In this document: one piece after another, positions 32,979 to 60,616 of the stretch
Numbering within the stretch: the first letter of the stretch is position 1
How the letters are laid out: each line of letters begins with the position of its first letter
Assembly (NCBI GenBank): GCA_001805965.1
Contig: MHHG01000052.1
Coordinates: forward strand, 13,930-77,929
DNA from: Omnitrophica WOR_2 bacterium RIFOXYA2_FULL_38_17
GTDB lineage: Bacteria; Omnitrophota; Gorgyraeia; Zapsychrales; Zapsychraceae
Length of the DNA: 64,000 bases
Reading direction: 5' to 3'
Translations under genes and position numbers: made by a program
The notes under the pieces: model-generated
The model's input: only the letters and a program-made list of their open reading frames with translations
Databases searched by the model: none
Told to the model about the DNA's origin: nothing

Positions 32979-34018
32979 TAAAGATCGGGAAGAAAAGTAT
33001 AGGAGAGAATAATTCAGTTTTTATAATTGCTGAGTTATCGGCCAATCATAATAAAGATTATCAAATTGCTAAAAAGACAATCAAGGCGGCAAAGTTAGCA
33101 GGCGCAGATGCTGTTAAGTTTCAGACATATACCCCTGATACAATCACTATAGATTCTAGTAATAAGTGTTTTCTGATCGATCAAGGAACTTTATGGGATG
33201 GAAAAACATTATATGAACTTTACCAAGAAGCTTATATGCCTTGGGAATGGCAACCAAAATTAAAAAAGTATGCAGAACAATTAGGTCTCGCATGCTTTTC
33301 ATCACCATTTGATAAGACGTCTGTTGAATTTCTAACCAAGATGAATGTTCCTGCGTACAAGATCGCATCTTTTGAAATTACGGATATTCCTCTTATTGAA
33401 TATGTTGCATCAAAAAATAAGCCTGTAATAATTTCGACGGGCATTGCGTCTAAGGATGAAATATTAGAGGCTGTGAGGGCATGTCGAAGAATGAAAAATT
33501 CCCAGATTGCTTTATTAAAATGTACTTCAGGTTATCCTGCGTCTTTTGAAAGTATGAATTTGAAAACAATTGCTGATATGAACAAGAGGTTTGGAGCAGT
33601 TGTTGGTTTATCAGATCATACATTGGGTATATCTGTTCCGGTAACAGCGGTAGCTATGGGAGCTAAAATAATTGAAAAGCATCTTACTCTAGACAGAAAT
33701 ATGGGTGGGCCTGATGAAGCATTTTCACTGGAACCTGAGGAGTTCAAATTAATGGTGGATTCTGTTAGGCAAGCAGAGAAGGCGCTAGGTAAGGTTACAT
33801 ATGTATTGAGTGAGGCAGTTAAGAGAAATAGAAAGTTTGCACGGTCTTTGTTTGTTGTAGAGGATATGACAAAAGGAGACAATTTTACCCACATAAATGT
33901 ACGTTCTATAAGGCCAGGTAATGGTATGAATCCTTATGATCTGAAAAAAGTTTTAAAAAAAAAGGCAAAAAGGAATATTAAAAAAGGAACCCCTTTGAAG
34001 TGGAGCTTAATTGAGTAA
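32975..34018 (+). CDS. pseI: Pseudaminic acid synthase (NeuB family, with C-terminal SAF domain)
   Basis: IIAELSANHN motif; 347 aa including the SAF/antifreeze-like C-terminal domain. Confidence 0.85.
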   Translation: MIKIGKKSIGENNSVFIIAELSANHNKDYQIAKKTIKAAKLAGADAVKFQTYTPDTITIDSSNKCFLIDQGTLWDGKTLYELYQEAYMPWEWQPKLKKYAEQLGLACFSSPFDKTSVEFLTKMNVPAYKIASFEITDIPLIEYVASKNKPVIISTGIASKDEILEAVRACRRMKNSQIALLKCTSGYPASFESMNLKTIADMNKRFGAVVGLSDHTLGISVPVTAVAMGAKIIEKHLTLDRNMGGPDEAFSLEPEEFKLMVDSVRQAEKALGKVTYVLSEAVKRNRKFARSLFVVEDMTKGDNFTHINVRSIRPGNGMNPYDLKKVLKKKAKRNIKKGTPLKWSLIE

Positions 34019-35924
34019 TGATATGAAAAAAAATATTGAGTCAAAGGAAAAAAAGAACAATGAAAGAGTTGTTGCTCTTGGATTAAATAAATTTGATCAG
34101 ATCGCCGCACTTTTTTACTGTTTCTTGAAGAATTACGATGCAGATGTTTATTCCTATGGAACATTTTCTTCGGGAATCCCTAATGGTGTTTTGTCAACAA
34201 TGAAAAAAGTGCCATTTTGGCAAAAATATTGGGAAAGTTCTGTTCATGAGAGATTTGGGAGGATTGGGGATAGCAAAGGATTTTTGTTTGAAGCCTACAA
34301 GGATGTTATTGATCTGACAATAATTTATTATAAAGAGCATTTTAGTGAAAAAAATTTGTTTGGAAAATATTGCGATAGGATATTTAAAACTAATAAGATG
34401 GAAGCTTTTATAAAAGATGAAATAGCTAAACAAATGATATCTTTTCTTGTTAATTTGAAACTGATAAGCTTTGATAATATTCAATTAAAAAAAAAATTAG
34501 TTATTATCATTAGTCCTATAAACAAGGTTGCGATCGATTATTTTGAAAAGAAGTATGGTGTGACGTTTGATATTGAAGAGGTTCGCTCATATAGTCCAGT
34601 ATTAGCTTGTTTTCAATATGCTATTTGGTTGATAAAAGAATGCTTTCTAAGGGGCCTGACTAAGGGGCAGAAAAGGAGAACATATAAACTTGCTAAAGCG
34701 GTAGTTTTTGGTTGTGAGCAGAAAACATTGAGTGATGATCTTCTGATAGATAATGATAAATTCCTTAAAGATGATATTTTATTCTTAAATTTTGAAAAGG
34801 AAAATAGTGCTTTTAATGATATGGGAGAAAAATTGAAGGAAAAAGGGTATTCTGTTGAGAATGTTAGTGATTTTAAGATAAGGATTGATTCTTTGCCAAA
34901 ACATTTACTTAATTATGTGTTTAGGCCTTTGAAAAGTTTGTTTTTTCTTCTGATTGAAGGAAAGTATTATTTTGTTTCAAATATTTGCCAGTTTTATAAG
35001 CATTGTTTTTTGTTGAGTATGATTTTTGAGAAAGTTAGTTTTAAAGTATTTTTGTCTCATAAGGATTGGGGTAATGTGGAAGAGACGATAGCATTGAATA
35101 TACATGGTTCACAGTGTGTAATTTTTCATTGGAGTGCTTTGAGGTTTTATAAAATATCGTCTCATGCCTTTGTTGCACATAATGTATATTATTTTTGGGG
35201 TCCTGCACATTCAGAATTTCAATATTCTAATGCTTTGATTGATAAAAGAGTTAATGTTGGCTGTATTTACAAGAAGGAATTCTCTGATTCTTTGAAGTCC
35301 GTGGAAGAGATTATATCAGAGATTAATGGTTTTGATAGCAGACGTCAATCAGTGCTTTTTTGTGATACATCATTTTCATCTAATTGTGAACAAACAGAGA
35401 TGAATTTTCTAGAGTTTATAAGAATTATGACAAGGTTTTGTGAGAGTCATGATGGTGTTAATGTTCTCTTTAAGCCTAAGAAATTAGATGGTGCGATAGA
35501 GTTAGCTTTGGGAGATAAGGCTGAAGAGTATAGGCAGTTAGTTAAGTGTTTAAGTAAGCGTGAGAATTATTTTCATTTTGATGGCGAAAAAGTTAGTTTT
35601 GTTAAGTTATTGTCTATTTCTGACCTTTGTGTAAGCATGGGTATGAACTCAACTTCGGTAGTCTCTTTGATTTGTAGAAAAGATGCACTGTTTTACGATA
35701 AGACAGGGAATAAGGAGCATCCATGGGCTAAAGAATATTTTAATATTTTGGTTTTTGATGATGAAGAAAAAATACTAAGACAGATAGATAGAATATTAAA
35801 AGGCGAATTTTCAAGTATTGATGTTTTAAGTGAACAAGAAATTAGAGAAATTGATGCGTTTGATGATGATCTCGCTATTGATAGGATTAGAGAAGATATT
35901 TCCATCTTGTGTGCTCTTAGTTGA
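34011..35924 (+). CDS. Large uncharacterized protein, possibly a nonulosonate-transferase-like glycosyltransferase (unknown family)
   Basis: 637 aa, no canonical motif recognised. Organisation resembles the other two ~600-aa unknowns at 43972 and 58856. Confidence 0.35.
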   Translation: MSNDMKKNIESKEKKNNERVVALGLNKFDQIAALFYCFLKNYDADVYSYGTFSSGIPNGVLSTMKKVPFWQKYWESSVHERFGRIGDSKGFLFEAYKDVIDLTIIYYKEHFSEKNLFGKYCDRIFKTNKMEAFIKDEIAKQMISFLVNLKLISFDNIQLKKKLVIIISPINKVAIDYFEKKYGVTFDIEEVRSYSPVLACFQYAIWLIKECFLRGLTKGQKRRTYKLAKAVVFGCEQKTLSDDLLIDNDKFLKDDILFLNFEKENSAFNDMGEKLKEKGYSVENVSDFKIRIDSLPKHLLNYVFRPLKSLFFLLIEGKYYFVSNICQFYKHCFLLSMIFEKVSFKVFLSHKDWGNVEETIALNIHGSQCVIFHWSALRFYKISSHAFVAHNVYYFWGPAHSEFQYSNALIDKRVNVGCIYKKEFSDSLKSVEEIISEINGFDSRRQSVLFCDTSFSSNCEQTEMNFLEFIRIMTRFCESHDGVNVLFKPKKLDGAIELALGDKAEEYRQLVKCLSKRENYFHFDGEKVSFVKLLSISDLCVSMGMNSTSVVSLICRKDALFYDKTGNKEHPWAKEYFNILVFDDEEKILRQIDRILKGEFSSIDVLSEQEIREIDAFDDDLAIDRIREDISILCALS

Positions 35925-36018
35925 AAGTCAGATTAATATGTTTTTAATAATATAAGAAATTTAGATTGTTTTAGGGTATTGGAAAATTTAATATTGTAAA
36001 AAAGGGGAGGGAAGTACA

Positions 36019-36867
36019 ATGTCAATATTTGTAATTGCAGAAATAGGTATTAATCATAATGGGGACTTGGGTATAGCGAAACAGCTGATTGATGTTGCGA
36101 AGGTGGCTGGTGTTGATGCGGTGAAGTTCCAAAAAAGAACGATTGATTTGGTTTATACAAAGGAATTCTTAGACTCACCGCGTGAAAGTCCATGGGGAAC
36201 AACGCAACGAGCTCAAAAGGAAGGTCTTGAATTTGGATTGAAGGAGTATAAAGAAATCGATGCCTATTGCAAAGAAAAAGGCATTGAGTGGTTTATGTCT
36301 GCGTGGGATATTGAAAGTCAAAAATTTTCGCGACAGTTTAATTGTAAATACAATAAAGTAGCCTCAGCAATGATTGTTTATGAAAATTTGCTTAAGGAAA
36401 TTGCTTCAGAAAAAAAGCATACATTCATTTCGACTGGGATGTCGGAAGAGTCTCAGATTGACAGAGCTGTAGAAATATTTAAAGAATATGATTGTCCGTT
36501 TGAGCTTATGCATTGTGTTTCGACTTATCCTATGAACGATGAGGATGCAAATTTGAATCGTATTAAAGTTCTTCGTGATAAGTATAAGTGTGACGTGGGT
36601 TATAGTGGGCATGAAGTTGGTCTTGCAGTATCTTATGGTGCTGCTTCACTTGGAATTTCATCCCTTGAAAGACATATTACAACTGATCGTGCAATGTATG
36701 GTTCGGATCAAGCTGCTTCAGTTGAGCCAATGGGATTAATTCAATTGGTTGGTGCAGTTCGAAAAATTGAAAAAGCAATGGGCGATGGTAATATTGCAAT
36801 GAATGAAAAGGAAGTAGGTGTAGCAAAAAAATTAAGAGCTCATATTCCTTTTGAGGCTAAGAAATAG
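36019..36867 (+). CDS. NeuB-family sugar-acid synthase lacking the SAF domain (second synthase)
   Basis: VIAEIGINHNGDLGIAKQLI N-terminal NeuB TIM-barrel signature, but only 282 aa (no C-terminal SAF domain). Confidence 0.7.
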   Translation: MSIFVIAEIGINHNGDLGIAKQLIDVAKVAGVDAVKFQKRTIDLVYTKEFLDSPRESPWGTTQRAQKEGLEFGLKEYKEIDAYCKEKGIEWFMSAWDIESQKFSRQFNCKYNKVASAMIVYENLLKEIASEKKHTFISTGMSEESQIDRAVEIFKEYDCPFELMHCVSTYPMNDEDANLNRIKVLRDKYKCDVGYSGHEVGLAVSYGAASLGISSLERHITTDRAMYGSDQAASVEPMGLIQLVGAVRKIEKAMGDGNIAMNEKEVGVAKKLRAHIPFEAKK

Positions 36868-36879
36868 AGGTTTATTATT

Positions 36880-37623
36880 ATGGCAGACGTTGTAGCAATA
36901 ATTCCTGCTCGTTCAGGATCTAAGGGAGTCGTTGATAAAAATATTAAATTGTTATCAGGCTATCCCTTAATTGCATATAGTATTGCTGTTGCAAAACTTG
37001 CAAGAGGTGTTGATCGAGTTATTGTTTCAACAAATTCTAAGGAATATGCCAACATAGCGTGTGAGTATGGTGCAGAAGTTCCTTTTTTACGTCCGGAAGA
37101 AATATCGAGTGATTATAGTACAGATTATGATTGCATGAAGCATGCATTAGATTGGATAAAGAACGAAGAGGGCGCTATTCCTAGTTATTTAGTTCACTTA
37201 CGGCCGACAACACCATTTAGAGATCCTGGGCTTATTGAAAAAGCTATTATGTGTTTAAAACAAGATAAAGAAGCTACTGCATTGAGGTCCGTGCATGAAA
37301 TGTCAGAATCAGCGTATAAGTCATTTGAAGTAGACGGAGATTATTTAAAAACAATTGGATCAAATTCTTTTGATTTGGATGAAGCTAATAAACCAAGACA
37401 AAGTTTTAATAAAACCTATCAGGCTAATGGTTATGTTGATATTTTAAAAACATTATACATTATTGACAATCATAAACTGCATGGAAATCGAGTAGCAGCG
37501 TTTGTTACACCATATGTAGTTGAGGTAGATGTTTTGGAGGATTTTGACCATTTGGAGTATCAAGCATCAAAAAATCCAGATATTGTTAAAAAATTGTTTT
37601 TAAAAAAGGAAATGAACTTATGA
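36880..37623 (+). CDS. CMP-sugar cytidylyltransferase (second paralog)
   Basis: VAIIPARSGSKGVVDKNIKLL signature. Confidence 0.8.
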   Translation: MADVVAIIPARSGSKGVVDKNIKLLSGYPLIAYSIAVAKLARGVDRVIVSTNSKEYANIACEYGAEVPFLRPEEISSDYSTDYDCMKHALDWIKNEEGAIPSYLVHLRPTTPFRDPGLIEKAIMCLKQDKEATALRSVHEMSESAYKSFEVDGDYLKTIGSNSFDLDEANKPRQSFNKTYQANGYVDILKTLYIIDNHKLHGNRVAAFVTPYVVEVDVLEDFDHLEYQASKNPDIVKKLFLKKEMNL

Positions 37624-40086: not shown

Positions 40087-40802
40087 TGGCATCAAATTCA
40101 AATAATATGCAAAAAGATTATGTTGCTGTAACTTATAACGAAAAAGATAGACCTTTTACGCAGTATCCTGAGAAGTTATCGAGTTATTTGTTTTCAAGAT
40201 ACAATTTGAAAAAGGGAAGTAAACTTTTGGATTTAGGATGTGGCCGAGGGGAATTCTTGAAGGGATTTATACAATGTGGTCTTGAAGGGTGTGGAGTTGA
40301 TCAGTCAGTTATATCAAAGTCTGTTTGTCCTGAGGCTGAAATAGTTCAGTCGGATTTAGAGAATAAACCTTTGCCATATGAGAACAATGCTTTTGATATT
40401 GTTTTTTCAAAATCTGTCATTGAGCATTTTTATTATCCTGAGAAATTAGTTAAAGAAATATACCGTGTTGTTAGGCCTGGTGGATTGATAATCACAATGG
40501 TTCCAGAATGGAAATCAGTTTATAAAATATTTTATGACGACTATACGCATAGAACACCTTTTACAATAAACTCTCTTAGAGAAATATTGTTTATGCATAA
40601 TTTTGAAGATATAAATGTTGAAAGATTTATGCAGCTTCCGTTTTTATGGTCATCGCCTTGGTTGAAGCCTTTTTGTTCTATTGTAGCTATGACAGCACCT
40701 TGTGTATTGAAGCCATATAGTAAACTAGTGAGGTTTTCAAAAGAAATTATGCTTCTTTCAACTGCTGTTAAACCCAAGAGTGTTGTGGAGAGTAAGAAAT
40801 GA
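40086..40802 (+). CDS. Class I SAM-dependent methyltransferase
   Basis: LLDLGCGRGEF motif I, FDIVFSKSVIEH motif II/III. Confidence 0.75.
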   Translation: MASNSNNMQKDYVAVTYNEKDRPFTQYPEKLSSYLFSRYNLKKGSKLLDLGCGRGEFLKGFIQCGLEGCGVDQSVISKSVCPEAEIVQSDLENKPLPYENNAFDIVFSKSVIEHFYYPEKLVKEIYRVVRPGGLIITMVPEWKSVYKIFYDDYTHRTPFTINSLREILFMHNFEDINVERFMQLPFLWSSPWLKPFCSIVAMTAPCVLKPYSKLVRFSKEIMLLSTAVKPKSVVESKK

Positions 40803-41599
40803 GTAAATGCTTAAATGGATTATATTGTATTCATCTTGAATTAACTAGTAGGTGTAATAAGAATTGTTGGATGTGTGGTCGTCGTAAAATTGATAGAGAG
40901 TACCCTGAAATTGCTGCTAATTATGGTGAAATGGACTTTGAGTTGGTTAAGAAAATTTCTGAACAGGTGCCGGAGGACATAGTTGTTCAGTTTCATAATA
41001 ATGGTGAACCGCTTTTATATCCAAAGTTTGGAGAGGTAGTAAAGTTATTTGAAAATCAAATAAAATGTATGGATACAAATGCCAAGCTTATTATTGAACG
41101 GGCTGATGAAATAATTGATAGCATTGATACTATTACCATTTCAATATTTGAAAATGATCCTGAAGGGGATGAGCAATTTGAACTAGTCAAGGAATTTATA
41201 AAAATTAAAGGTGATAGAAAGCCAAATATTGTATTTAGATGTATGGGTGATGTTGGCGTGGAAAAATGGAAAGAATTAGGAGGTATTATCGCAACGAGAA
41301 CATTGCATAATCCTTTGGGAAGTTTTGAGTATAGAAAGTCTCCAACGGTTCCTGAAATAGGAATATGTTTAGAAATTTTGAACCATATGGCTATTGATAG
41401 GTTTGGGAAAGTTTCAATATGTGTTCGGTTTGACCCTCAGCGTGTGGGAGTTATTGGAGATGCGAATATTGATTCGCTATATGATATTTGGAATGGTGAA
41501 AAGAGAAAAGAGTGGGTTGAGTATCATAAGCAAGGAAAGAGGGACAAAATACCTCTGTGTAGTAAATGTGATTTTTGGGGAGTAGCTACTAGTTCTTGA
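40799..41599 (+). CDS. Radical SAM enzyme with C-terminal Cys-rich (SPASM/twitch-like) region
   Basis: ELTSRCNKNCWMCGRR (CxxxCxxC) plus C-terminal CVRF...CSKCDFWG cysteines. Confidence 0.7.
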   Translation: MSKCLNGLYCIHLELTSRCNKNCWMCGRRKIDREYPEIAANYGEMDFELVKKISEQVPEDIVVQFHNNGEPLLYPKFGEVVKLFENQIKCMDTNAKLIIERADEIIDSIDTITISIFENDPEGDEQFELVKEFIKIKGDRKPNIVFRCMGDVGVEKWKELGGIIATRTLHNPLGSFEYRKSPTVPEIGICLEILNHMAIDRFGKVSICVRFDPQRVGVIGDANIDSLYDIWNGEKRKEWVEYHKQGKRDKIPLCSKCDFWGVATSS

Positions 41600-43957: not shown

Positions 43958-43971
43958 GGATGGTATTTTAA

Positions 43972-45861
43972 ATGAATTTGATTTTAATAGAAAATGACCA
44001 AAGCATAGATAAAGTCATATCTCATCCAGAATATGTTCAAGGAAGAGACGTGATTTTATGTTTTTGTTATCTTTCATATTGGTATTTAAAGAATCAGAGC
44101 GACAAACATATTTGCGTATTTAATGATGACCTTTTTTTTAAAGAGGATTATGATTGTATGCATTCTGAGACAGAAAGATTTGCTTCGACTTGGTTCTACC
44201 AAGATGGTGCGGATGTAACATTGTTTAATAATGTCTCTTTTGGCGATTTGATAAAACCAGCTATTGGAAGAACATATATGTCTCATATTTTAGTTAAATA
44301 TGGTGAAGCTATTCGTAAATCTGTAGAAAAGTGGGGCAAAATCAATTGTATTTATTATGATTTTACAAATAAAAGTAATTACTTTAACTATCTTCAAAAC
44401 GATGGTGGTAGATTTTTCAATAAAAAAAGACTTGTTGAATGTGTTGCTAAACAATTAAATATAAAGACTTCAGAAATTATAACAGATAAGGTGTTGCCGA
44501 CTCCATATCTTCATGAGAAAGTTTGCATAGATTTTAACGGGAAGCTCCAAGAAAACAAAAAAGATCTACGTGGCACGATATGTTATTTTGCAAAATTGAT
44601 TCATAATGCTATAAGCCGTTTTCTATCTTTGTTTAATGGTACATTTAATGCAGGGAAAGTTTACTTTTTTAACTATTACAACATTAATAGTTTTGTACAA
44701 CATCACGCCAAAGATCTTGTGATCCCAAATTTTGGATTAAAGGATCATTTGAAAACGCTTTTCTCAGGATTGACATTTGCAGACATTGATGATGAGAAAT
44801 ATGAATTAGATAAGCCTGAGAATAGTTATCTGAAATTTATTCGGGATAGATTGTTGGATGAGGGTGTTGTTCGATCTGATTGTGACTTTGTATTCAATGG
44901 TATTGATTATTCTTCGATTTATGAGCCTGCTTTAAAGAACTTTGTCGAATGTCTTATTCCTTTTTATTTAGCGCATATGGTTAAGGTTAGGAATTTTCTC
45001 AAGAGGATGAGAGTTGCAAAGTTAGTTGTGAATGATATCACAGACGAGAAAAATGGTGTTATTATTGCAGCATGTCGACAATCCAATGTAAAAGTTTATT
45101 TTGTTGATCATGGAATCAAAGCATGGAGATCGGCGTATCCTTTACCATTTGTTGCTCCTGATGTTTATTTTGAAGCAAGTACTAGACCCTTTTACGAAAT
45201 GCCATTATTGCCCGAACCGCTTGGAACGCCTATTATGGATCAGCATGCTGAAAGACCAAGAAAGAAGGTTTCTAGGATAAAAAAAATTCTTTTTTTGACT
45301 TTTGCTGATAGTCATTATGCAAGATTAGATAGGTTAGCTTATAGGGGTAAATATTATGCAGAAATATTTTCTGTATTCAAAGGCTTGTCAGAGATGGGTA
45401 TGGAACTTTATTATAGGACTCATAGTGAAAATCAAGCTTATCATGATTATATGTTTGATCTTTTTGATGTAGATAGGACAACTTTTAAATTAAAGCATGG
45501 AGGTAGATTTTGTGATGTTATACGAGAGATGGATTTAATGGTGTGTAATTTTACTACATGTTTTTTTGAAGCTCAAGCTTCAGGTATTCCTACGATATTT
45601 CTTGAGCCGCATGTTATTATGGATGCTCTTCAGATGCCTTTGAGTGGAGAGCATATGAAAGATGTTATTCGTGTGTCAACTGGCAAAGATTTGATGAATA
45701 TTGTTAAACGTAATAAGGATAATCCTGCTGAATTAAATAAGTTTCTGGATGCTTTCATTGAAACAAATGGTGTCCCTTATATTGGAAATCTAGATGGAAA
45801 GGCAAGTGAGAGAATTTCTGATTATATATTTAATGATAAAGTAAGGAATCTTTCTGAATAA
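43972..45861 (+). CDS. Large uncharacterized protein with GT-B/TagF-like C-terminal half (putative glycosyl- or glycerophospho-transferase)
   Basis: 629 aa; C-terminal KKILFLTFADSHY...YYRTHSEN...ASGIPTIFLEPH resembles the donor-binding half of TagF/KpsS-like GT-B enzymes (HP motif). Confidence 0.4.
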   Translation: MNLILIENDQSIDKVISHPEYVQGRDVILCFCYLSYWYLKNQSDKHICVFNDDLFFKEDYDCMHSETERFASTWFYQDGADVTLFNNVSFGDLIKPAIGRTYMSHILVKYGEAIRKSVEKWGKINCIYYDFTNKSNYFNYLQNDGGRFFNKKRLVECVAKQLNIKTSEIITDKVLPTPYLHEKVCIDFNGKLQENKKDLRGTICYFAKLIHNAISRFLSLFNGTFNAGKVYFFNYYNINSFVQHHAKDLVIPNFGLKDHLKTLFSGLTFADIDDEKYELDKPENSYLKFIRDRLLDEGVVRSDCDFVFNGIDYSSIYEPALKNFVECLIPFYLAHMVKVRNFLKRMRVAKLVVNDITDEKNGVIIAACRQSNVKVYFVDHGIKAWRSAYPLPFVAPDVYFEASTRPFYEMPLLPEPLGTPIMDQHAERPRKKVSRIKKILFLTFADSHYARLDRLAYRGKYYAEIFSVFKGLSEMGMELYYRTHSENQAYHDYMFDLFDVDRTTFKLKHGGRFCDVIREMDLMVCNFTTCFFEAQASGIPTIFLEPHVIMDALQMPLSGEHMKDVIRVSTGKDLMNIVKRNKDNPAELNKFLDAFIETNGVPYIGNLDGKASERISDYIFNDKVRNLSE

Positions 45862-52883: not shown

Positions 52884-52907
52884 AGTCTTTCTAGGAGGGA
52901 ATAGAGC

Positions 52908-53819
52908 GTGAAAGAAGTTTTTATATCTACATCAACTTTTGCCAAGTATTCAAAAGAACCTATCGATTTGTTAGAAAGAGAGGGTTATAAAGTTAGTCTC
53001 AACCCTACCGGACAAAAAATGACGACTGATGATATTATGAAATACGGCAAGGATGCAGTGGGCCTGATCGCTGGAACAGAAAAATTAAATGCGGATGTGT
53101 TAAAAGCGCTTCCTAATCTTAAAGTTATTTCAAGATGTGGTGTTGGTTTGGATAATGTTGATTTGAATGCTGCTGAAGACTTAAATATTTGGGTTGTTAA
53201 TACACCTGACGGGCCAACACTTGCTGTTGCGGAATTGACTATAGGATTAATATTAAGCCTTATAAGAAATGTTGTGTGGATGGATAAAGACATTCGAAAG
53301 GGAATTTGGAAAAAGAGAATGGGTAACTTGCTTTTTAATAAGCGAGTTGGGGTGATTGGGTGTGGAAGAATTGGTCGAAAGGTTGTTGAATTATTGAAAG
53401 TGTTTAACTGTGAGATTTCTTATTCTGATCCTTATGTCGATTGTGAAATCCTTGGGCTGAAGAAAATGGATTTAGAAGAATTATTGAAATGGTCAGATCT
53501 TGTAACAATACATTCCTCTGGAAGCAGTGTCTTAATTAATGAGAAGCAACTGGATTTAATGAAAAAAGGAGCATGGATCGTAAGTGTGGCACGTGGTGGT
53601 GTTGTCGATCAAAGAGCCCTTTATGAATCATTGCGAAGCGGATACTTGGGTGGTGCGGCTTTAGATGTTTTTGATGAAGAACCATATAGTGGTATGTTGA
53701 AGCACTTAGATAATGTTATCTTGACGCCTCATGTTGGGTCTTATGCAAAAGAGGCGAGAGTAAAAATGGAAATAGAATCAGCAGTAAATTTAATTAATAA
53801 GCTTAAAGACTGTTTATAA
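52908..53819 (+). CDS. D-isomer-specific 2-hydroxyacid dehydrogenase (glycerate/phosphoglycerate-dehydrogenase-like)
   Basis: GVIGCGRIGRKV NAD-binding motif, catalytic R/E/H region (SVARGGVVD...TPHVGS). Confidence 0.8.
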   Translation: MKEVFISTSTFAKYSKEPIDLLEREGYKVSLNPTGQKMTTDDIMKYGKDAVGLIAGTEKLNADVLKALPNLKVISRCGVGLDNVDLNAAEDLNIWVVNTPDGPTLAVAELTIGLILSLIRNVVWMDKDIRKGIWKKRMGNLLFNKRVGVIGCGRIGRKVVELLKVFNCEISYSDPYVDCEILGLKKMDLEELLKWSDLVTIHSSGSSVLINEKQLDLMKKGAWIVSVARGGVVDQRALYESLRSGYLGGAALDVFDEEPYSGMLKHLDNVILTPHVGSYAKEARVKMEIESAVNLINKLKDCL

Positions 53820-53834
53820 TAGGAGGTCAAATAT

Positions 53835-54275
53835 ATGACTGATAATAAAATCAGTGATAAAGATGTAAGTCATGTATTAAAAGATGATGGAGTTCATACG
53901 GTTTTGATAGGAGAAGAGTATGAAAATATTTCATGTACGGATCTTGAAACAATTAAAAAAAGATGTGGCACACCACCATGGGCTGTAAGGATTGTTTATA
54001 ATGAATTATTTGGCGGAGTTTTAATATGTCAAAAGCCAGGAGAAGGAAATAGGCTTCATTATCATCCTGATGCGGATGAATGTTGGGTTATTATGGAAGG
54101 CCAATGGGAATGGTATATTGAGGGTGAAGGAACAAAAAAAGTTAAGGAAAAAGATATTGTTGTTGTAAAAAAAGGCACGGATCATAAGATTACTTGTATA
54201 GGAGATGTTCCGGGGATACGCTTTGCTGTAACCGCTCCTGATGTAAATCATGTTTATAGTTCAAAAGGAGAATAG
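53835..54275 (+). CDS. Cupin-domain protein
   Basis: 146-aa ORF with a His-containing conserved-barrel-like motif (HYHPDADECWVIMEG). Confidence 0.5.
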   Translation: MTDNKISDKDVSHVLKDDGVHTVLIGEEYENISCTDLETIKKRCGTPPWAVRIVYNELFGGVLICQKPGEGNRLHYHPDADECWVIMEGQWEWYIEGEGTKKVKEKDIVVVKKGTDHKITCIGDVPGIRFAVTAPDVNHVYSSKGE

Positions 54276-54279
54276 AAAA

Positions 54280-54999
54280 ATGAATATTGATTTTTCTGGA
54301 AAAGTAGCACTTATTGTTGGAGGTACAAGTGGTATAGGGCTTGACTTAGCAAAGCAATTAAGTTCTAGTGGTGCGAAAACTTTTGTTGCTTCTCGCAATG
54401 ACCATGGATCACTGGATAGTATTGGGTTTATTAAGTGTGATGTGAGAGACGAAAAACAGGTTAAAGGCCTTGTTGGTGAAATTATTTCAAAAGAAACCCA
54501 TATCGATATTTTAGTTAATTCAATGGCCATAAATCAATGCAAGCCAATTGAAGAGATATCGCTGGATGATTGGAAAGATGTTGTTGATACTAATATAACT
54601 GGGATATTCTTGCTTTGTAAAGAAGTTATTCCACACATGAAAAAAAGAAAGTACGGAAAGATTGTTAATATTTCTTCTATTGCAGGAAGGCACAGAAGTC
54701 CAGTGAGTGGAGTTCATTATGTAGCTACTAAGGCTGCGATAATTGGGTTTACAAGGCAGTTGGCTTTTGAGGCAGCTCCTTTTGGCATTAATGTTAATGT
54801 GCATTGTCCAAGCCAAACATTGACTCCAATGTTAAAAAGTTCCATGAACAAGGAACAAATAGAGGCTTTGGAGGCAATAATACCTTTGAAGCGGTTGGCT
54901 ACGGTTGAAGAACAAGCTTATGCGGTATTATTTTTGTGTTCAGATATGTCATCATATATGAGTGGTGCTGTTTTGGATGTTAATGGAGGGCAAATATAA
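54280..54999 (+). CDS. SDR-family oxidoreductase (FabG-like)
   Basis: GKVALIVGGTSGIGL and YVATKAAIIGFTRQLA (YxxxK). Start set to the ATG at 54280, preceded by an AAAAGGAGA RBS. Confidence 0.8.
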   Translation: MNIDFSGKVALIVGGTSGIGLDLAKQLSSSGAKTFVASRNDHGSLDSIGFIKCDVRDEKQVKGLVGEIISKETHIDILVNSMAINQCKPIEEISLDDWKDVVDTNITGIFLLCKEVIPHMKKRKYGKIVNISSIAGRHRSPVSGVHYVATKAAIIGFTRQLAFEAAPFGINVNVHCPSQTLTPMLKSSMNKEQIEALEAIIPLKRLATVEEQAYAVLFLCSDMSSYMSGAVLDVNGGQI

Positions 55000-55763
55000 T
55001 GGGTAATAATAAATTTGCTCCACCAGTCGCTTTGTTGATGGGGAGGAAAGGGAGTCAAGGTCTACCGGGAAAAAATTGTATGATATTGTTGGGTAAAAAG
55101 ATAATGCATTATCCTTTGATGGCAGCTAAAACATCAAAATATGTAAAAAACATATTTGTTTCTACTGATGATGACGAAATAGCTGAAGAATCAAAAATTT
55201 TTGGAGCAGAACATATTTTGAGGCCACCTGAATTATGCACAAATAAAGCTCTTTTTGAAGATGCATTGTTACACGGTTTTCATGAAGTGACCAAAAGATT
55301 AGGAAAGATCCCGGAATTTTTAGTTGCTTTAATGTGTAATGCTCCAACGGTCAATGCTCAATTAATTGATGAAGCAATTGAGAAATTAAGAGCAGATGAT
55401 GAAGCTGACTCAGCAGTAACAGTATCAGTGTTCAATATGTGGTCACCAATGAGGGCGAGAAAATTGAATGATCAAGGATATTTGGATCCTTTTATTCCAC
55501 TGGAATTTTGGGGTGATTCATCAAAAGTTAATTGTGATAGAGATTCTCAAGGGAATGTTTATTATGCTGATATGAGTCATTCAGTATGTAAGCCAAGGTG
55601 TTTTGATGATGATATGAAAGATGGTCTTCTTCCACAAAAATGGATGGGGAAGAAAATTCTTCCTGTGAGAAATCCATTTGGTTGTGATATTGATTATGAT
55701 TGGCAAATACCGATGGTTGAATTTTGGCTTGAAAAGTATAGTGATTTTGAAAAAAACAAATAA
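54999..55763 (+). CDS. CMP-sugar cytidylyltransferase-family protein (third paralog)
   Basis: VALLMGRKGSQGLPGKNCMIL N-terminal signature. Confidence 0.7.
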   Translation: MGNNKFAPPVALLMGRKGSQGLPGKNCMILLGKKIMHYPLMAAKTSKYVKNIFVSTDDDEIAEESKIFGAEHILRPPELCTNKALFEDALLHGFHEVTKRLGKIPEFLVALMCNAPTVNAQLIDEAIEKLRADDEADSAVTVSVFNMWSPMRARKLNDQGYLDPFIPLEFWGDSSKVNCDRDSQGNVYYADMSHSVCKPRCFDDDMKDGLLPQKWMGKKILPVRNPFGCDIDYDWQIPMVEFWLEKYSDFEKNK

Positions 55764-55779
55764 TAGAGAGGGATGTTTT

Positions 55780-56424
55780 TTGATTAAAGCAATAATATTT
55801 GATTTTGATGGAGTTATTTGTGAGTCTGCGAATATTAAAACGGAAGCTTTTGGTGAATTGTTTTCTCAATGGCCGGATGTTTCTAATAAAGCGCTTGAAT
55901 ATCATCTTGTAAATACTGGTGTTACTCGATTTCAAAAGTTTCGTTATCTTTATGAAGAATTGTTAAGGCTGGAATATACTGATGAGATTGGAGAGAAATT
56001 AAGTGATGATTTTAGTGCAATTTGTTTTGAAAGAGTTAAGCAAGCGCCGTTTGTAAAAGGAGCACAAGAGTTTTTAGAAGAATATTTTGAGCAATACAAA
56101 TTATTTGTTGCATCTGCTTCACCTCTAGGCGAATTGAAAGAAACTATTAGAGTGAAGAATTTAGAGAAGTATTTTGGCGATATTTATGGGCATCCTAGTT
56201 TAAAAAAAGATGTGGTTAAAGGTATTATGCAGAGTCGCGGGTATAAAAAGTCGGAAGTTGTTTTTGTAGGAGACGGAGAGAGTGATTTAAAAGCAGCAAA
56301 ATGCAATGATGTTTTTTTTGTCTTGAGAAAAACATCAGAAAATGATTATTTGTTTGAGCGATCTAAATACAAAATTGATGACTTAAGTGCATTGAGTGAT
56401 TTAATTTTAAAATTGCCAAATTAA
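55780..56424 (+). CDS. HAD-superfamily hydrolase (phosphatase / beta-PGM-like)
   Basis: AIIFDFDGVI motif I (DxDG), motif IV GDGESD. TTG start at 55780 after an AGAGAGGGA RBS, which removes the overlap with the upstream gene. Confidence 0.7.
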   Translation: MIKAIIFDFDGVICESANIKTEAFGELFSQWPDVSNKALEYHLVNTGVTRFQKFRYLYEELLRLEYTDEIGEKLSDDFSAICFERVKQAPFVKGAQEFLEEYFEQYKLFVASASPLGELKETIRVKNLEKYFGDIYGHPSLKKDVVKGIMQSRGYKKSEVVFVGDGESDLKAAKCNDVFFVLRKTSENDYLFERSKYKIDDLSALSDLILKLPN

Positions 56425-56441
56425 GAAGATCTGGAGGAAAT

Positions 56442-57341
56442 ATGTCAAAAAAAGTTATGGTTTTTGGTGGCTCAGGATTTTTGGGAAGCCATGTAGCTGA
56501 TTGTTTAGTAGAGAAAGGTTATGATGTGTCGATCTATGATATTAAAAAATCTTCTTATTTGACTGAAGGTCAAAAGATGATAGTTGGCGATGTAACAGAT
56601 TATGATAAAGTGATCGAGGTGCTTAAGGGGTTTGATATTGTTTATAATTTTTCTGGAATAGCAGATATTCAGGAGGCTAGTGAAAACCCACTGAATGTTG
56701 TTAAGTTAAATATTTTGGGGAATACGAATATTCTTGAAGCTTGTCGTATTAACAAAGTCAAACGGTTTATTTTTGCAAGTAGCCTTTATGTTTATGGCAA
56801 TCTGGGGTCATTTTATAGAAGCAGCAAGCAGGCTTGTGAATTAATAATTGAGGATTATCAAAAGAAATTTGGATTAGATTTTATTATCTTGCGATATGGT
56901 TCTTTGTATGGTGACAGGGCGACGGGTTTTAATCCATTAAGAGATTTTATTGAACAAGCAATTAAAAAGGGAAAGATTATAAGAAAAGGTAATGGAGAAG
57001 AGATTAGGGAATATATTAATGTTGTCGATGCTGCAAGAAGTAGTGTTGAAGTAATAGAACGGGGTTTTAAAAATGAATATATGATGATATCAGGTAATCA
57101 ATCTATGAAAATTAAAGATATGTTGGAAATGATTAAAGAAATGATGAAGGGTAAAATAAAGATTGAATATAATACACCTGCCCTGGCTGACGAACACTAT
57201 GGAATAACTCCGTATTATTTTCAGCCTAAAGTGGCAAAAAAATATGTGTTGGATAGTTATTATGACCTAGGAGAAGGAATCCTGAGCCTTATTTATAAAA
57301 CACATGAAGAGTTGTTGAATGAAAGAGAGAATGGATATTAA
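56442..57341 (+). CDS. NAD-dependent sugar epimerase/dehydratase
   Basis: VMVFGGSGFLGSHV Rossmann motif; YxxxK (YRSSKQACE). Confidence 0.78.
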   Translation: MSKKVMVFGGSGFLGSHVADCLVEKGYDVSIYDIKKSSYLTEGQKMIVGDVTDYDKVIEVLKGFDIVYNFSGIADIQEASENPLNVVKLNILGNTNILEACRINKVKRFIFASSLYVYGNLGSFYRSSKQACELIIEDYQKKFGLDFIILRYGSLYGDRATGFNPLRDFIEQAIKKGKIIRKGNGEEIREYINVVDAARSSVEVIERGFKNEYMMISGNQSMKIKDMLEMIKEMMKGKIKIEYNTPALADEHYGITPYYFQPKVAKKYVLDSYYDLGEGILSLIYKTHEELLNERENGY

Positions 57342-58849
57342 TGAGAATACTGCTTGTATATTCCTCTTTGTATAAAGTTACCGGTTTGCCGCTTGGTGTT
57401 GCATCTTTAAATGCAATTCTTAAAAATAATGGACATGAAGTTTCAATATTTGAAACCACATTTTATTGTATAGATGAGTCTTCGGTAGAGATTCGTGACA
57501 GAGAAAATCGGTTGATGGCAAAAAAAGTCAGTAATGAAGATGAGCATTTAGGTACGGACCACTCGAGTAATATATTTGATGATTTAAAATTACGTTTATC
57601 AGAATTCAAACCTGATATGATGGGGATTTCTATTTTTGAATCGACTTATTTGCTGAGTAAAAAATTATTTGCTGTAGCAAAAGAAAATATTCCGTCAATA
57701 ATTACTATTGCTGGAGGGACATTCCCGATGTTGGCACCAGAAGTGGTTGTTGATGATAAAAATGTCGATATAGTCTGTGTCGGGGAAGGAGAAAATTCGC
57801 TGTTAGAATTATGTGATGCTATTGACGGTAACCTGGATTTTAGTCATATCCAAGGGATGTGGATTAAATCAAATGGTTCAATTATTAAAAATAGTATTGC
57901 TTCAATTCCTGATATAAACAAGCTGCCACCACCTGATTATACAGGTTTTGACTCTCGTTTATTTTATAAACCAATGCAAGGTAAGTATTATAAGATGGTC
58001 AATATTGAGACTTCACGTGGCTGTCCCTACAATTGTTCATACTGTGCATCACCCGCATTTAAATCAAAATATAAGAAGATAGACGGGTGTTCATATTTTC
58101 GTACTCTGAATATTGACAAAATTATGTCTCAGATATATTGCCAAATTGATATTCATAATCCTGAATTTGTTTATTTTTCAAGCGAAACGTTTTTAGCAAT
58201 GCCAGAAAGTGATTTTGAAGTTTTTATTAAAGAATATAAGAAAGTTAACCTGCCATTTTGGTTTCAGACTCGGTTTGAAACAATAACCGAAGAAAAAATA
58301 AAAAAGTTGCAGGAGGTAGGATTGTATTGGATGACACTTGGTGTTGAACATGGAAATGAAGAGTTTAGAAAAAAAGTTCTCAACCGCCATTATAAAAACC
58401 AAATAGTAGAAGCTGGTATGCATGTATTGAATAATTGTGGAGTGGGAACAACATTAAACAATATGGCTGGATTTCCGTTTGAAACCCGGGAATTAGTTTT
58501 TGATACCATTAATCTGAACAAGAAGTTGCTATCTATAAATCCACTAATTGAAACAAATTTATATATATTCGCTCCTTTTCGAGGGTGTGCACTATATGAT
58601 TTATGTGTTTCGGAAGGTTTTCTCGATAAAACGGACTTTATTAACAGTACTGATCTAAGCGATGAATCATTATTGAAATTTTCGGATGAATTTAAACAAG
58701 ATTTGAAGGGATTACTCAAAACTTTTAACCTGTACGTACGTTTAAATGAAGAATATTACCCGCGTATCAGGATTGCTGAAAAGGATGATGAAGAAGGTAA
58801 GCAAGCGCATAACGAACTTATGCAAATTGTAATGCAGCAGTCTAGGTAA
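57341..58849 (+). CDS. B12-binding-domain radical SAM enzyme (class B)
   Basis: IETSRGCPYNCSYCASP plus an N-terminal B12-binding-like Rossmann segment. Confidence 0.85.
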   Translation: MRILLVYSSLYKVTGLPLGVASLNAILKNNGHEVSIFETTFYCIDESSVEIRDRENRLMAKKVSNEDEHLGTDHSSNIFDDLKLRLSEFKPDMMGISIFESTYLLSKKLFAVAKENIPSIITIAGGTFPMLAPEVVVDDKNVDIVCVGEGENSLLELCDAIDGNLDFSHIQGMWIKSNGSIIKNSIASIPDINKLPPPDYTGFDSRLFYKPMQGKYYKMVNIETSRGCPYNCSYCASPAFKSKYKKIDGCSYFRTLNIDKIMSQIYCQIDIHNPEFVYFSSETFLAMPESDFEVFIKEYKKVNLPFWFQTRFETITEEKIKKLQEVGLYWMTLGVEHGNEEFRKKVLNRHYKNQIVEAGMHVLNNCGVGTTLNNMAGFPFETRELVFDTINLNKKLLSINPLIETNLYIFAPFRGCALYDLCVSEGFLDKTDFINSTDLSDESLLKFSDEFKQDLKGLLKTFNLYVRLNEEYYPRIRIAEKDDEEGKQAHNELMQIVMQQSR

Positions 58850-58855
58850 AATTTT

Positions 58856-60616
58856 ATGATTGTAATAGATTATCTTTTTTTGGTTAATAAGTCTTCTAAG
58901 GAGTCATTGTATCAAAAAAAATGGTTTTATTTGGGGACCGATTATAAGAAGATCAAAGTGTTGCAAAATAGTTTTTTGAAAGCTGATGGTTATGTGGATG
59001 TATTCCATGAGTTAAAATCAATACAAGAGGAGTATAAGCAAGAATTCATTGATTTTATAGGTTCTTTATCAGTCAAATATGATTCCTTTCAATGGTGGGC
59101 TTCTTCTGTGTCTGAAAAAGGGATGTTTGAAGGCCAGCCGTTGTTTATGGAGTTTTGCTATTTTAAACTTATCAAGCAGTACATGAATCAAGATGTGTTG
59201 ATAGTTCTAGATAATTTAACATTATTGGAAGCAGTTCAGCAGAATTATAATGTAAAAACGTATATTTATCAGAAAAGCAGTTATATTGCTGAAATCATTG
59301 GATATTTTAAAAGTAGAGCAAAGTTTTTTATAATGCACTTTTTCAGAAAGAAAGCCCCAGATTGTTATATTTCAGGAAAAAAATATATTGGCTTGATTTC
59401 TTGGGTTGATGATCGAAATACTGAATCTGGTGATTTTGAAGATAGTTATTTTGGAAAATTGTTTTCAAGTAAAAAAAACAATGATGAATTTTTGTATTTA
59501 CCCAATTTCATATTTAGAAAATATAAAGATGAAGCATTCGCAGCCTTAAGAAAGGAATCCATTAATTATTTTAGTTTATTCGATAATTTTACAAAGCTGG
59601 ATGTCCTTAAAGCGCTTTTTTTATCAATGGGTTTTAATTTTGACAAAAATGAAAAGTTTATTTTTGATGGCGAAAATGTAAGTTTATTTATAAAGCAAAA
59701 ATTAAAAGATGATTGGTTGGCTAATAGGTTATCGAAATATTATTTGTTGTATTTTGCAGTAAAATGCTTAAAACAAAAAGGTGTTTTTCTTGATAAAGTA
59801 GTTTATTTGTTTGAAAATCAGCCGTGGGAAAAAATACTTTGTTATTCTTTTAAAGAATTCTATCCCGAAGTTGAATTGATTGGATTTATGCATTCTGTTA
59901 CATTGCCATATTTGCTCAGTTTGTATCCTTCTCAGAACGAAAGAGAAATAATGCCTCAGCCTGATAAAATATTTACAACAGGTCAATTGTTTTCAGAAGA
60001 GTTGAGAAAATATTATGACAAAACAAAAATTGAAGATGCGTGTGCTTTTAGATACGAATATTGTTTTGAGAATAAAGTTATAAGTAAGAATAAAAAAAAT
60101 GTAATATTAGTCGCGTTGGCGTCTGATGTTGAAAAAAAAGCTGAGATGATTGATAAAATTTATTATGCATATAAAGATAAGAAAGAATACCGTGTTTTAA
60201 TAAAGGACCATCCGGCGAATCCTGCAAATCTTGAATCAATATTTAATAATGAATTGCCCGATAATTTTGAAATAGTTAATCAGCCGATATCTGAATTGTT
60301 GAGCAGTTCATCGCTTGTAATCAATGCAGATTCTACAGTGGGGTTTGAAGCCTTGAAATTTCGAGTACCTGTTATTGAAATATTGTTTAATGTAAACTCA
60401 AATATGAGTCCAATAGATTATTTTCAAGGAAAAAAATATAAATGTCTTACGCCTAATGAAATTTTAGATACAACAAACACAATTCTAAACATGCCTCATG
60501 ACGAAAAAAATAAATACTTCCTGGAAGTTGATAGTTTTCTTGAGAGTTGTTTTAATCCAATCAAGGATGAATATATAGCGAAGATTTGTAATAAAAGGCA
60601 AAAGGAGTATTTTTAA
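58856..60616 (+). CDS. Large uncharacterized protein with GT-B-like C-terminal half (third member of the ~600-aa unknown trio)
   Basis: 586 aa; C-terminal NVILVALASD...LIKDHPANP...INADSTVGFEAL resembles a TagF/KpsS-like nucleotide-sugar-binding half. Confidence 0.4.
   Translation: MIVIDYLFLVNKSSKESLYQKKWFYLGTDYKKIKVLQNSFLKADGYVDVFHELKSIQEEYKQEFIDFIGSLSVKYDSFQWWASSVSEKGMFEGQPLFMEFCYFKLIKQYMNQDVLIVLDNLTLLEAVQQNYNVKTYIYQKSSYIAEIIGYFKSRAKFFIMHFFRKKAPDCYISGKKYIGLISWVDDRNTESGDFEDSYFGKLFSSKKNNDEFLYLPNFIFRKYKDEAFAALRKESINYFSLFDNFTKLDVLKALFLSMGFNFDKNEKFIFDGENVSLFIKQKLKDDWLANRLSKYYLLYFAVKCLKQKGVFLDKVVYLFENQPWEKILCYSFKEFYPEVELIGFMHSVTLPYLLSLYPSQNEREIMPQPDKIFTTGQLFSEELRKYYDKTKIEDACAFRYEYCFENKVISKNKKNVILVALASDVEKKAEMIDKIYYAYKDKKEYRVLIKDHPANPANLESIFNNELPDNFEIVNQPISELLSSSSLVINADSTVGFEALKFRVPVIEILFNVNSNMSPIDYFQGKKYKCLTPNEILDTTNTILNMPHDEKNKYFLEVDSFLESCFNPIKDEYIAKICNKRQKEYF

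Follow-up and report, generated by a model that had tools for sequence, protein, structure and literature searches.

Three large open reading frames in a glycan locus

The window analysed here is a stretch of 64,000 nucleotides (nt) from the metagenome-assembled genome (MAG) of Omnitrophica WOR_2 bacterium RIFOXYA2_FULL_38_17 (contig MHHG01000052.1, positions 13,930 to 77,929). It harbours a single glycan locus that runs from about 13 kb to past the window end and contains three large open reading frames (ORFs), here called A, B and C. A first-pass annotation, made from the sequence alone, had singled out their products as uncharacterized proteins with C-terminal parts resembling GT-B glycosyltransferases. 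The coordinates, sizes and neighbours that it gave are correct (Table 1), and the gene preceding A passes the PseI cutoff. The questions treated here are whether the three proteins are related and whether they might attach the sugars that the locus makes.

All three genes lie on the plus strand within a single long co-directional block of this Omnitrophota MAG. Gene A overlaps pseI by 8 nt, is translationally coupled to it and has GGAG upstream of its TTG start. B is situated 14 nt downstream of a gene for a B12-binding radical S-adenosylmethionine enzyme (B12-rSAM) and 42 nt upstream of an rSAM gene of the SPASM type; C is separated by a 6-nt gap on either side from B12-rSAM genes. Each of the three is preceded by a Shine-Dalgarno-like sequence, and their G+C content is 29-32%. 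Identical proteins recur on contigs of several groundwater MAGs, one of which is named Omnitrophica WOR_2 bacterium GWF2_38_59. No hydrophobic segment fitting a transmembrane helix was found in A, B or C, and reading them as membrane proteins was rejected on this ground.

A common core detected by profiles

Pairwise BLASTP among A, B and C gave nothing significant (best E 0.09). A Pfam-A scan at E<=10 returned no family for A or B and noise only for C. The families are rare: among 5.8 billion proteins, B is represented by 8 clusters, C by 12 and A by 5. An exhaustive hidden Markov model search with the B-family profile retrieved 502 representatives at E<=1e-3, referred to below as the B superfamily; most of the 150 best listed of them are 560-660 amino acids (aa) long.

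Profiles were then compared with each other by hhalign, using a 116-sequence alignment of the B superfamily, a wider C alignment of 51 sequences drawn from genome loci (the C superfamily) and an A-family alignment of 4 sequences. The B superfamily matches the C family with a probability of 98.7% (E 2.8e-16) over 283 columns, B 301-592 falling on C 263-555, and the C superfamily with 99.5% (E 4.7e-23) over 305 columns. It matches the A family with 96.2% (E 2.7e-9) over 273 columns, B 339-622 on A 335-634. With small-family profiles no match of B to A and a weak match of C to A were obtained; the link of A emerges only with the deeper B-superfamily alignment. The N-terminal halves (B 1-300, C 1-262, A 1-334) showed no similarity by hhalign and no sign of a shared N-terminal domain.

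By this comparison A, B and C carry one common core of about 280-305 residues, detectable only with profiles, and their N-terminal 260-330 residues are family-specific and unrelated among the three. The similar organisation ascribed to them at first thus holds for the C-terminal core at profile level and fails in pairwise BLASTP; the N-terminal half, described as variable, indeed has no detectable counterpart.

Predicted fold

An AlphaFold2 model of B was obtained with a predicted local distance difference test (pLDDT) score of 78.8 and a predicted template-modelling score (pTM) of 0.79. Foldseek comparison of this model with the PDB gave 198 matches at E<=1e-3. The top 50 listed are all GT-B enzymes, among them UDP-GlcNAc 2-epimerases, MurG, CalG-type and UGT glycosyltransferases and BshA. 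For 2-epimerases, MurG and CalG, E values range from 1e-9 to 1e-6 at probability 1.0, with template-modelling (TM, target) scores of up to 0.62. B is accordingly modelled as a GT-B fold with two Rossmann-like beta/alpha/beta domains. C is predicted to share this fold by homology alone, as the 305 aligned columns span both Rossmann halves of the B model.

Conserved motifs of the core

In the N-terminal Rossmann half one strand ends in a motif with a conserved histidine (F-V-D379-H380-G381 in B, Y-M-H346-S in C, F372-H373-W-S375 in A). V378-D-H-G381 is invariant within the B family, and so is F372-H-W-S375 in A. In profile alignment the VDHG motif of B falls on the H-V-E-A-G segment of the Bacillus 2-epimerase 3beo. 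One strand earlier, the C family possesses a near-invariant F319-E-N-Q-P-W-E-K326 motif, whose counterpart in B is, by hhalign, the acidic N-D-I-T-D-E-K. Residues E320, W324, E325, R399 and H452 are invariant across the 51 C sequences, and P453 is conserved in at least 90% of them.

A His-Pro (HP) region had been described in the C-terminal half of each protein. This is correct for C, where the motif reads K450-D-H452-P453 and is located in the C-terminal Rossmann half, and half correct for B (R482-T-H484), where H484 is invariant and followed by serine instead of proline; KPHP occurs in 2 of 7 B-family homologues. It is not correct for A, which has Lys490 at this place and whose sole invariant HP (570-571) is located elsewhere than the HP strand. 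The HP strand is followed by a helix with the motif (S/T)-x-x-x-E-A...G-x-P, represented by S493-T-V-G-F-E498 in C and E533-AQASGI-P540, including G538-I-P540, in B. Invariant polar residues of the A core are H373, H390, N391, D452, K488, K490, D538 and H570.

The HP strand and the following helix align with TarL (K-M-H-P ... S-S-L-I-Y-E) and KpsC (K-V-H-P-E ... S-S-Q-M-G-F-E). This region binds the CMP or CDP phosphate of the donor in TagF/TarL, KpsC/KpsS and bacterial sialyltransferases. Bacterial sialyltransferases typically combine an HP motif with a D/E-D/E-G motif, and the two matter for catalysis and for the binding of CMP-Neu5Ac (PMC5420450).

Relations to curated families

All three proteins had been said to lack assignable signatures. 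This agrees with the Pfam scan, but NCBIfam models give A and C weak assignments. A matches TIGR04417 (E 9e-10, 38.1 bits against a cutoff of 100) over residues 108-569, and PF27878 is present at E<=1e-5 in the precomputed Pfam annotation of A and all its homologues. Both models describe polysaccharide biosynthesis PFTS motif proteins, and the putative name-giving motif reads D-T-S-F-S-S in A.

C matches TIGR04326 (O_ant_LIC13510; E 3e-17, 62.1 bits against a cutoff of 250), residues 313-541 falling on model positions 337-575 of 602. The same model is matched by all 51 members of the wider C alignment, at best with E 4e-116, and the family resembles C in length class and in its FENQPWE and K-x-HP motifs. 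As judged from these matches, C is an outlying branch of TIGR04326 below the curated cutoff; the suggestion to compare it with this family was therefore right. A search for the TIGR04326 accession in the literature library used here found nothing.

For B the relations become visible at superfamily level. Among 78 B-superfamily members scanned against NCBIfam, 29 match BFO_1060 (NF046086; best E 1e-30), 24 TIGR04396, 4 TIGR04326, 3 WecB, 2 KpsS, 1 PseG and 1 TarB. BFO_1060 is also matched by 6 of the 51 C-superfamily members, and proteins annotated as PF27859 (LIC12162) match the B-superfamily profile. NCBIfam gave no match of A or C to NF046086, and B appears related to BFO_1060 only through intermediate sequences.

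Among PDB sequences, the B-superfamily profile matches TarL 8va1 (E 1.8e-7), UDP-GlcNAc 2-epimerase 3beo (4.6e-6) and KpsC 6mgb (7.7e-6). The best match of the C-superfamily profile is KpsC 6mgb (E 2.5e-4), a match that coincides exactly with the K-x-HP strand and the next helix; small A and B profiles found nothing in the PDB search. At E<=10 the Pfam scan detected neither Glyphos_transf nor Capsule_synth (KpsC/KpsS) nor MptE-like (Maf/DUF115) domains in A, B or C. The comparison with TagF and KpsS/KpsC proposed by the first-pass annotation gives a relation at profile level only (TarL, KpsC), and its suggestion of Maf/DUF115 found no domain match. In these searches A, B and C appear below the thresholds of every characterised glycosyltransferase family tested.

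Gene context in the window

The Pse (pseudaminic acid) pathway genes end at the start of A. PseB (489 bits), PseC (520) and PseI (496, cutoff 340) all score above their equivalog cutoffs; the 494-aa PseG-PseH fusion reaches 150.3 bits for PseG against a cutoff of 153.55, and its PseH match is weak. This pathway is the probable donor route for one of A, B and C. The short NeuB-like synthase and the second cytidylyltransferase (PseF 135 bits, below the cutoff of 205.7) probably lead to a second CMP-ulosonic acid, and a third cytidylyltransferase belongs to the module upstream of C. In this module the ORFs for the cytidylyltransferase (54999-55763) and the HAD phosphatase (55678-56424) overlap by 86 nt. 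Gene callers begin the HAD protein later on sibling contigs (214-235 aa), so its true start is probably downstream.

All three cytidylyltransferases of the window are of the CTP_transf_3 type and none is of the TagD/TarI/IspD type. CTP_transf_3 enzymes are those of the KdsB/NeuA/PseF kind, which make CMP-ulosonic acids. No Pfam glycosyltransferase domain was found among about 60 window ORFs scanned; the nearest, a GT2, lies about 7 kb after the window ends. Since three CMP-sugar synthetases stand beside three GT-B proteins and no other attaching enzyme was detected, A, B and C would, by elimination, be the proteins that attach the sugars.

Other genes of the locus may serve for decoration and export. 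The WbuX-type amidotransferase with its HisH- and HisF-like partners is the usual set for placing an acetamidino group on a nonulosonic acid (NulO). Genes for ATP sulfurylase, adenosine 5'-phosphosulfate (APS) kinase and a sulfotransferase-like protein imply a sulfated glycan. Gene callers on the sibling MAGs GCA_001806045.1 and GCA_001805995.1 report only the 384-aa sulfurylase part of the 729-aa fusion. The FkbH-like and MBOAT proteins could provide O- or N-acyl (e.g. glyceroyl) decorations, and the ABC exporter is a candidate exporter or flippase for a lipid-linked product. Several methyltransferases, aminotransferases and a heptose pathway are also present. All four B12-rSAM and both SPASM genes score far below any equivalog cutoff. 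The B12-rSAM at 19146 is nearest to PhpK-type P-methyltransferases (272 bits) and lies beside HD-domain, APH-like kinase and nitroreductase-like genes.

The G+C content is 38% in the first 10 kb of the window and 33% from about 10 kb onward, a drop at the glycan locus that is compatible with a horizontally exchanged surface-glycan island. Positions 1-10000 are a housekeeping part with anaerobic ribonucleotide reductase, methylenetetrahydrofolate reductase (MTHFR) and a TonB receptor. An 801-aa protein with a central spermine/spermidine-synthase-like domain is encoded just upstream of the glycan locus (10443-12848).

Table 1. Positions (nt of the window) of A, B and C, of their cores and motifs, and of other genes of the glycan locus
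Feature	Position	Strand	Remarks
Protein A	34011..35924	+	637 aa, TTG start; PFTS_polysacc-type, PF27878, weak TIGR04417 match; family-specific N-terminal half (aa 1-334) and GT-B-like core
Core of A	35013..35912	+	aa 335-634; homologous to B-superfamily GT-B core by hhalign
F372-H-W-S375 of A	35124..35135	+	N-terminal Rossmann half
K488-P-K490 of A	35472..35480	+	HP-strand position
Protein B	43972..45861	+	629 aa; rare family without curated model; GT-B fold in model
Core of B	44872..45822	+	aa 301-617; common to C and A by hhalign
V378-D-H-G381 of B	45103..45114	+	N-terminal Rossmann half
R482-T-H484 of B	45415..45423	+	HP-strand position
E533-AQASGI-P540 of B	45568..45591	+	helix after HP strand
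Protein C	58856..60616	+	586 aa; divergent TIGR04326 protein (surface carbohydrate family with FENQPWE motif)
Core of C	59642..60592	+	aa 263-579; hhalign against B superfamily
F319-E-N-Q-P-W-E-K326 of C	59810..59833	+	one strand before H346
H346 of C	within 59888..59896	+	N-terminal Rossmann half
K450-D-H452-P453 of C	60203..60214	+	HP motif
FkbH-like protein, unannotated 364-aa ORF, MBOAT acyltransferase	13185-17668		locus start; FkbH-like of glyceryl-carrier loading type (320 bits); MBOAT on minus strand
B12-rSAM genes (4)	19146-20747, 42566-43957, 57341-58849, 60623-62185		
pseF, first of three CMP-sugar synthetases	23142..23870	-	CMP-pseudaminic acid synthetase; TIGR03584 277.7 bits, cutoff 205.7; CTP_transf_3
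WbuX-type N-acetyl sugar amidotransferase, HisH-like glutaminase, HisF-like cyclase	24296-26824		345 bits, above cutoff
Fused ABC exporter, HepA/MsbA/PglK-like	27500..29266	+	NF045513 HepA E 5e-111; MsbA and PglK also match; all below cutoff
Pse pathway: pseB, pseC, pseG-pseH fusion, pseI	29356..34018	+	NCBIfam
Short NeuB-like synthase and second CTP_transf_3	36019..37623	+	synthase 282 aa, no SAF domain; NeuB 231 and PseI 174 bits, both below cutoff
SPASM rSAM genes (2)	40799-41599, 45904-46899		
Pyruvate-kinase/ATP-sulfurylase fusion, APS kinase, sulfotransferase-like protein	48977-52883		fusion 729 aa
Module upstream of C	52908..57341	+	2-hydroxyacid dehydrogenase (phosphoglycerate dehydrogenase (PGDH)-like), cupin, SDR, third CTP_transf_3, HAD, NAD-epimerase/dehydratase

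Gene context in other genomes

Six other loci of the B family were inspected. DegT aminotransferases occur in five of them, CTP_transf_3 in four and NeuB in two; a B12-rSAM within 10 kb was found in none of the six. One locus (L012) holds a B-type plus a C-type protein.

In two other loci of the A family (L015 and L016), PseB/PseC-like genes follow the A gene, and NeuB, sulfotransferase and B12-rSAM genes are nearby. In both, a B-superfamily protein of about 600-630 aa is encoded immediately before the A gene (L015 8089-9987, L016 8209-10020); the one in L016 is of the PF27859 LIC12162 type (E 2e-34), and the one in L015 is unannotated (E 1e-17). This arrangement suggests that the PFTS-type protein and the B-superfamily protein preceding it act as a pair.

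Searching for the FENQPWE motif yielded 53 C-family loci. They come from phyla including Omnitrophota, Planctomycetia, Dehalococcoidales, Elusimicrobia, Lindowbacteria and Thermodesulfobacteriota, and further from Alphaproteobacteria including Pelagibacter, from Leptospira vanthielii and from the archaeon Methanoperedens. Neighbours were counted in those 40 loci that span 12 kb or more. Epimerase-like genes of the type found at 56442 are present within 10 kb in 30 of these and within 2.5 kb in 22. The corresponding numbers are 23 and 12 for DegT, 21 and 3 for CTP_transf_3, 20 and 9 for the 2-hydroxyacid dehydrogenase, 18 and 14 for HAD, 14 and 5 for B12-rSAM, and 5 and 0 for NeuB.

The module upstream of C is largely syntenic with that of C-family genes in many phyla (ten loci singled out here, and others). 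In a Planctomycetia locus (L024), an HpcH/HpaI pyruvate aldolase gene directly precedes the cytidylyltransferase gene and a Wzy_C/O-antigen-ligase-like gene follows the C homologue. The aldolase and the scarcity of NeuB (5 of 40 loci within 10 kb) suggest that the module makes an undescribed CMP-activated 3-deoxy-2-ulosonic acid without NeuB.

Homologues of A, B and C alike are encoded at loci that hold CTP_transf_3, NeuB and DegT genes. These counts show that the conserved partner of A-, B- and C-type proteins is CMP-sugar biosynthesis and not radical SAM chemistry. The idea of a new family working together with the rSAM enzymes is therefore not sustained, and the rSAM neighbours in the window are best read as sugar-tailoring enzymes of these pathways.

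Proposed function

The core homology, the fold predicted for B, the links to BFO_1060, KpsC and TarL, the CMP-sugar genes in the window and at the loci of homologues, and the tight operon packing together lead us to regard A, B and C as probable, if by no means certain, soluble cytoplasmic GT-B glycosyltransferases. They would be very divergent members of this class and would attach the CMP-activated ulosonic acids of the locus. The earlier proposal that they are candidate transferases of pseudaminic-type sugars is backed by all the computational tests, with respect to the fold of B, the core, the family links and the locus; the activity itself is predicted.

Each enzyme would take one CMP-ulosonic acid, either CMP-pseudaminic acid (made by PseBCGHI and PseF) or the product of one of the two further CTP_transf_3 synthetases. 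Judged by gene adjacency only, the likeliest donor of A is the sugar of the Pse branch, and that of C is the sugar made by its upstream module. In each enzyme the CMP of the donor would be bound in the C-terminal Rossmann half, its phosphate next to the HP-strand histidine (lysine in A) and the helix that follows. Histidine and acidic residues for activating the hydroxyl of the acceptor, or for acting at the anomeric centre, may come from the N-terminal Rossmann half, whether the chemistry be inverting or retaining. Specificity for the acceptor or the sugar may lie in the family-specific N-terminal 260-330 residues, or these may serve for docking to the membrane or to partners. The sugars might be modified further by the amidotransferase, the methyltransferases, the B12-rSAM enzymes and the set for 3'-phosphoadenosine 5'-phosphosulfate (PAPS) and sulfotransfer. 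The presumed acceptor is a surface glycan under assembly on a lipid or a protein; the HepA/MsbA/PglK-like ABC exporter would carry it outward.

Several observations weigh against this assignment. The direct link between C and A is weak (E 0.003-0.007), yet it lies in the topologically equivalent region. B itself reaches only 14.5 bits (E 0.014) with NF046086, whose cutoff is 200. At the position of the HP-strand histidine, A has the lysine of K488-P-K490. The AlphaFold model of A is poor (pLDDT 54, built from the 4-sequence alignment); its best Foldseek matches are C-domains of GT-B enzymes at weak E values of 1e-3 to 5e-2 (WecB at 1e-3, trehalose-6-phosphate synthases/OtsA, TagF, TarM and KpsC) and are suggestive only. 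UDP-GlcNAc 2-epimerases head the structural matches of B (E 1e-9) and come second in the sequence profile search, and the GT-B fold also houses non-transferases. As NeuB occurs within 10 kb in so few C-family loci, the donor of C may not be a classical nonulosonic acid. The agreement in number between synthetases and supposed transferases could be coincidence. Finally, no experiment is known for proteins of the A, B or C families; a literature search with five related family and locus identifiers yielded one paper, with a single mention of LIC12162.

Alternative explanations

On sequence, the best alternative is phosphotransfer of the TagF/TarL type, and on structure it is an epimerase or hydrolase. 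The proteins might, first, transfer alditol-, glycerate- or sugar-phosphate from a CDP donor to build phosphodiester-linked polymers resembling teichoic acid. TarL 8va1 is indeed the best PDB sequence match of the B-superfamily profile, over 230 residues that include K-x-HP and S-x-x-x-E; TagF is among the fold matches of A, one B-superfamily member matches TarB, and a PGDH-like dehydrogenase and a HAD phosphatase stand in the module beside C. We nevertheless consider this explanation unlikely, given that Glyphos_transf is not matched even at E 10, that the window's cytidylyltransferases are all of the wrong type for it, and that among curated families BFO_1060, a family of NulO transferases, is the closest.

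Equally improbable in our estimate is that A, B and C are GT-B-fold enzymes processing nucleotide sugars in the adjoining biosynthetic pathways, such as hydrolysing 2-epimerases or hydrolases of the NeuC/LegG/PseG type. The 2-epimerase matches already mentioned, which in the profile search extend over about 290 residues at E 4.6e-6, speak for it, as do the few superfamily members matching WecB or PseG and the embedding of the three genes among biosynthetic genes. The PseG domain, though, is already present in the 494-aa fusion, and A, B and C exceed epimerases in length by about 250 residues and have N-terminal halves peculiar to each family. The epimerase and hydrolase signal is also a minority one (3 WecB and 1 PseG against 29 BFO_1060 among 78). 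Moreover, with A, B and C set aside, the ORFs scanned across the 64 kb contain no detected glycosyltransferase domain.

A mixed explanation, to which we give slightly less credence again, takes B and C as active transferases and A as a catalytically divergent or non-catalytic paralogue, for instance a subunit that sets specificity or chain length alongside another superfamily member. It would account for the loss of the HP-strand histidine in A (K490 in 4 of 4 aligned A-family sequences) and for the B-superfamily gene immediately before the A gene in both other loci. Lysine can, however, stand in for histidine as a phosphate ligand, the many invariant polar core residues kept in A argue for an active site, and in the window no B-superfamily partner lies directly upstream of A.

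That the three assist the neighbouring B12-binding or SPASM rSAM enzymes as accessory or scaffold proteins, as the gaps of 6-42 nt between B or C and flanking rSAM genes and a B12-rSAM within two genes of two close C homologues might suggest, is very improbable, because B12-rSAM genes are missing within 10 kb at the six other B-family loci, are rarer within 2.5 kb of C-family genes than epimerase (22), HAD (14) and DegT (12) genes, and because the proteins themselves have the complete fold of a nucleotide-sugar enzyme.

Returning to transferases of CMP-activated ulosonic acids, a bolder version can be put forward with considerable doubt. A, B and C might stand for three new CAZy-level families of a widespread GT-B superfamily dedicated to CMP-ulosonic acids, with at least 500 representatives at 50% identity in Omnitrophota, Planctomycetia, Dehalococcoidales, Elusimicrobia, Leptospira, SAR11 and Methanoperedens. 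The C/TIGR04326 branch would serve an undescribed CMP-sugar acid, in some loci made with an HpcH/HpaI pyruvate aldolase in place of NeuB, and the glycan of this bacterium would be rich in C-methylated, amidinated and sulfated NulOs.

Significance

Transferases of Pse, legionaminic acid (Leg) and related acids are scarce, few of them have been characterised, and recognising one from its sequence is difficult. The recently characterised KpsS1 (GT118) and KrkA (GT140) each founded a new CAZy family (PMC12887879), and the same would be no surprise for A, B and C; the prediction that they are transferases is plausible rather than surprising. One GT-B superfamily would unite the uncurated B family, the TIGR04326 and PFTS families, to which no function is assigned, the PF27859 (LIC12162) proteins and Tannerella BFO_1060. 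If this is true, attaching enzymes become assignable at many of the large nonulosonic-acid loci found in uncultivated phyla, in Leptospira and in SAR11, and new enzymes become available for glyco-engineering with bacterial analogues of sialic acid. The motifs and gene pairings described here make catalytic residues and donors testable, and a widespread, apparently undescribed CMP-sugar module is exposed beside the C family. A literature search combining nonulosonic acid and Omnitrophota found nothing.

Comparison with known systems

The Maf/DUF115 (MptE-like) flagellin NulO transferases resemble A, B and C in being candidate NulO transferases within Pse/Leg loci. They were rejected as relatives, since the domain is missing and their fold is of another class.

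TagF and TarL share with our proteins a GT-B-like fold, and the B-superfamily profile can be aligned with them over the K-x-HP strand and the S-x-x-x-E helix. The histidines replaced in the TagF variants H444N and H548A (two PDB entries) are 104 residues apart, the same spacing as that of H380 and H484 in B, although the two pairs are not directly aligned. The loci differ in that the present one has CMP-ulosonic-acid synthesis and no cytidylyltransferase of the TagD/TarI type.

Sialyltransferases of GT38, GT52 and GT80 follow a similar two-motif logic (on one side an acidic or histidine motif where a strand of the N-terminal half ends, V-D-H-G in B and F-E-N-Q-P-W-E in C, and on the other the HP-type histidine of the C-terminal half), a likeness that is positional only. 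Searches with A, B and C found no sequence or profile match to sialyltransferase structures.

KpsC/KpsS (GT107), WbbB (GT99), KpsS1 (GT118, a Pse transferase) and KrkA (GT140) are retaining enzymes that use CMP-ulosonic-acid donors. Retaining ulosonic-acid transferases have a strongly modified GT-B fold with a reduced N-terminal domain (PMC12887879). The model of B, in contrast, best resembles canonical GT-B enzymes, and KpsC is outside its top 50 Foldseek matches. The retaining enzymes work with an Asp nucleophile and a Glu base; KpsC aligns with the B and C superfamilies over the HP-strand region only. GT99, GT107, GT118 and GT140 have negligible mutual sequence similarity, and yet each of them proved to be an ulosonic-acid transferase (PMC12887879).

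The nearest functional precedent is found in Tannerella forsythia. BFO_1060 is the strain 92A2 orthologue of Tanf_01245/TFUB4_00887; when these are deleted, the S-layer O-glycan loses its terminal Pse or Leg derivative (PMC5420450). The Tannerella enzymes are shorter (about 445 aa) than A, B and C (586-637 aa), whose N-terminal halves are unrelated. What they have in common with the B and C superfamilies is a homologous C-terminal nucleotide-binding Rossmann half, an HP-type motif and a position of their genes beside those for CMP-NulO biosynthesis.

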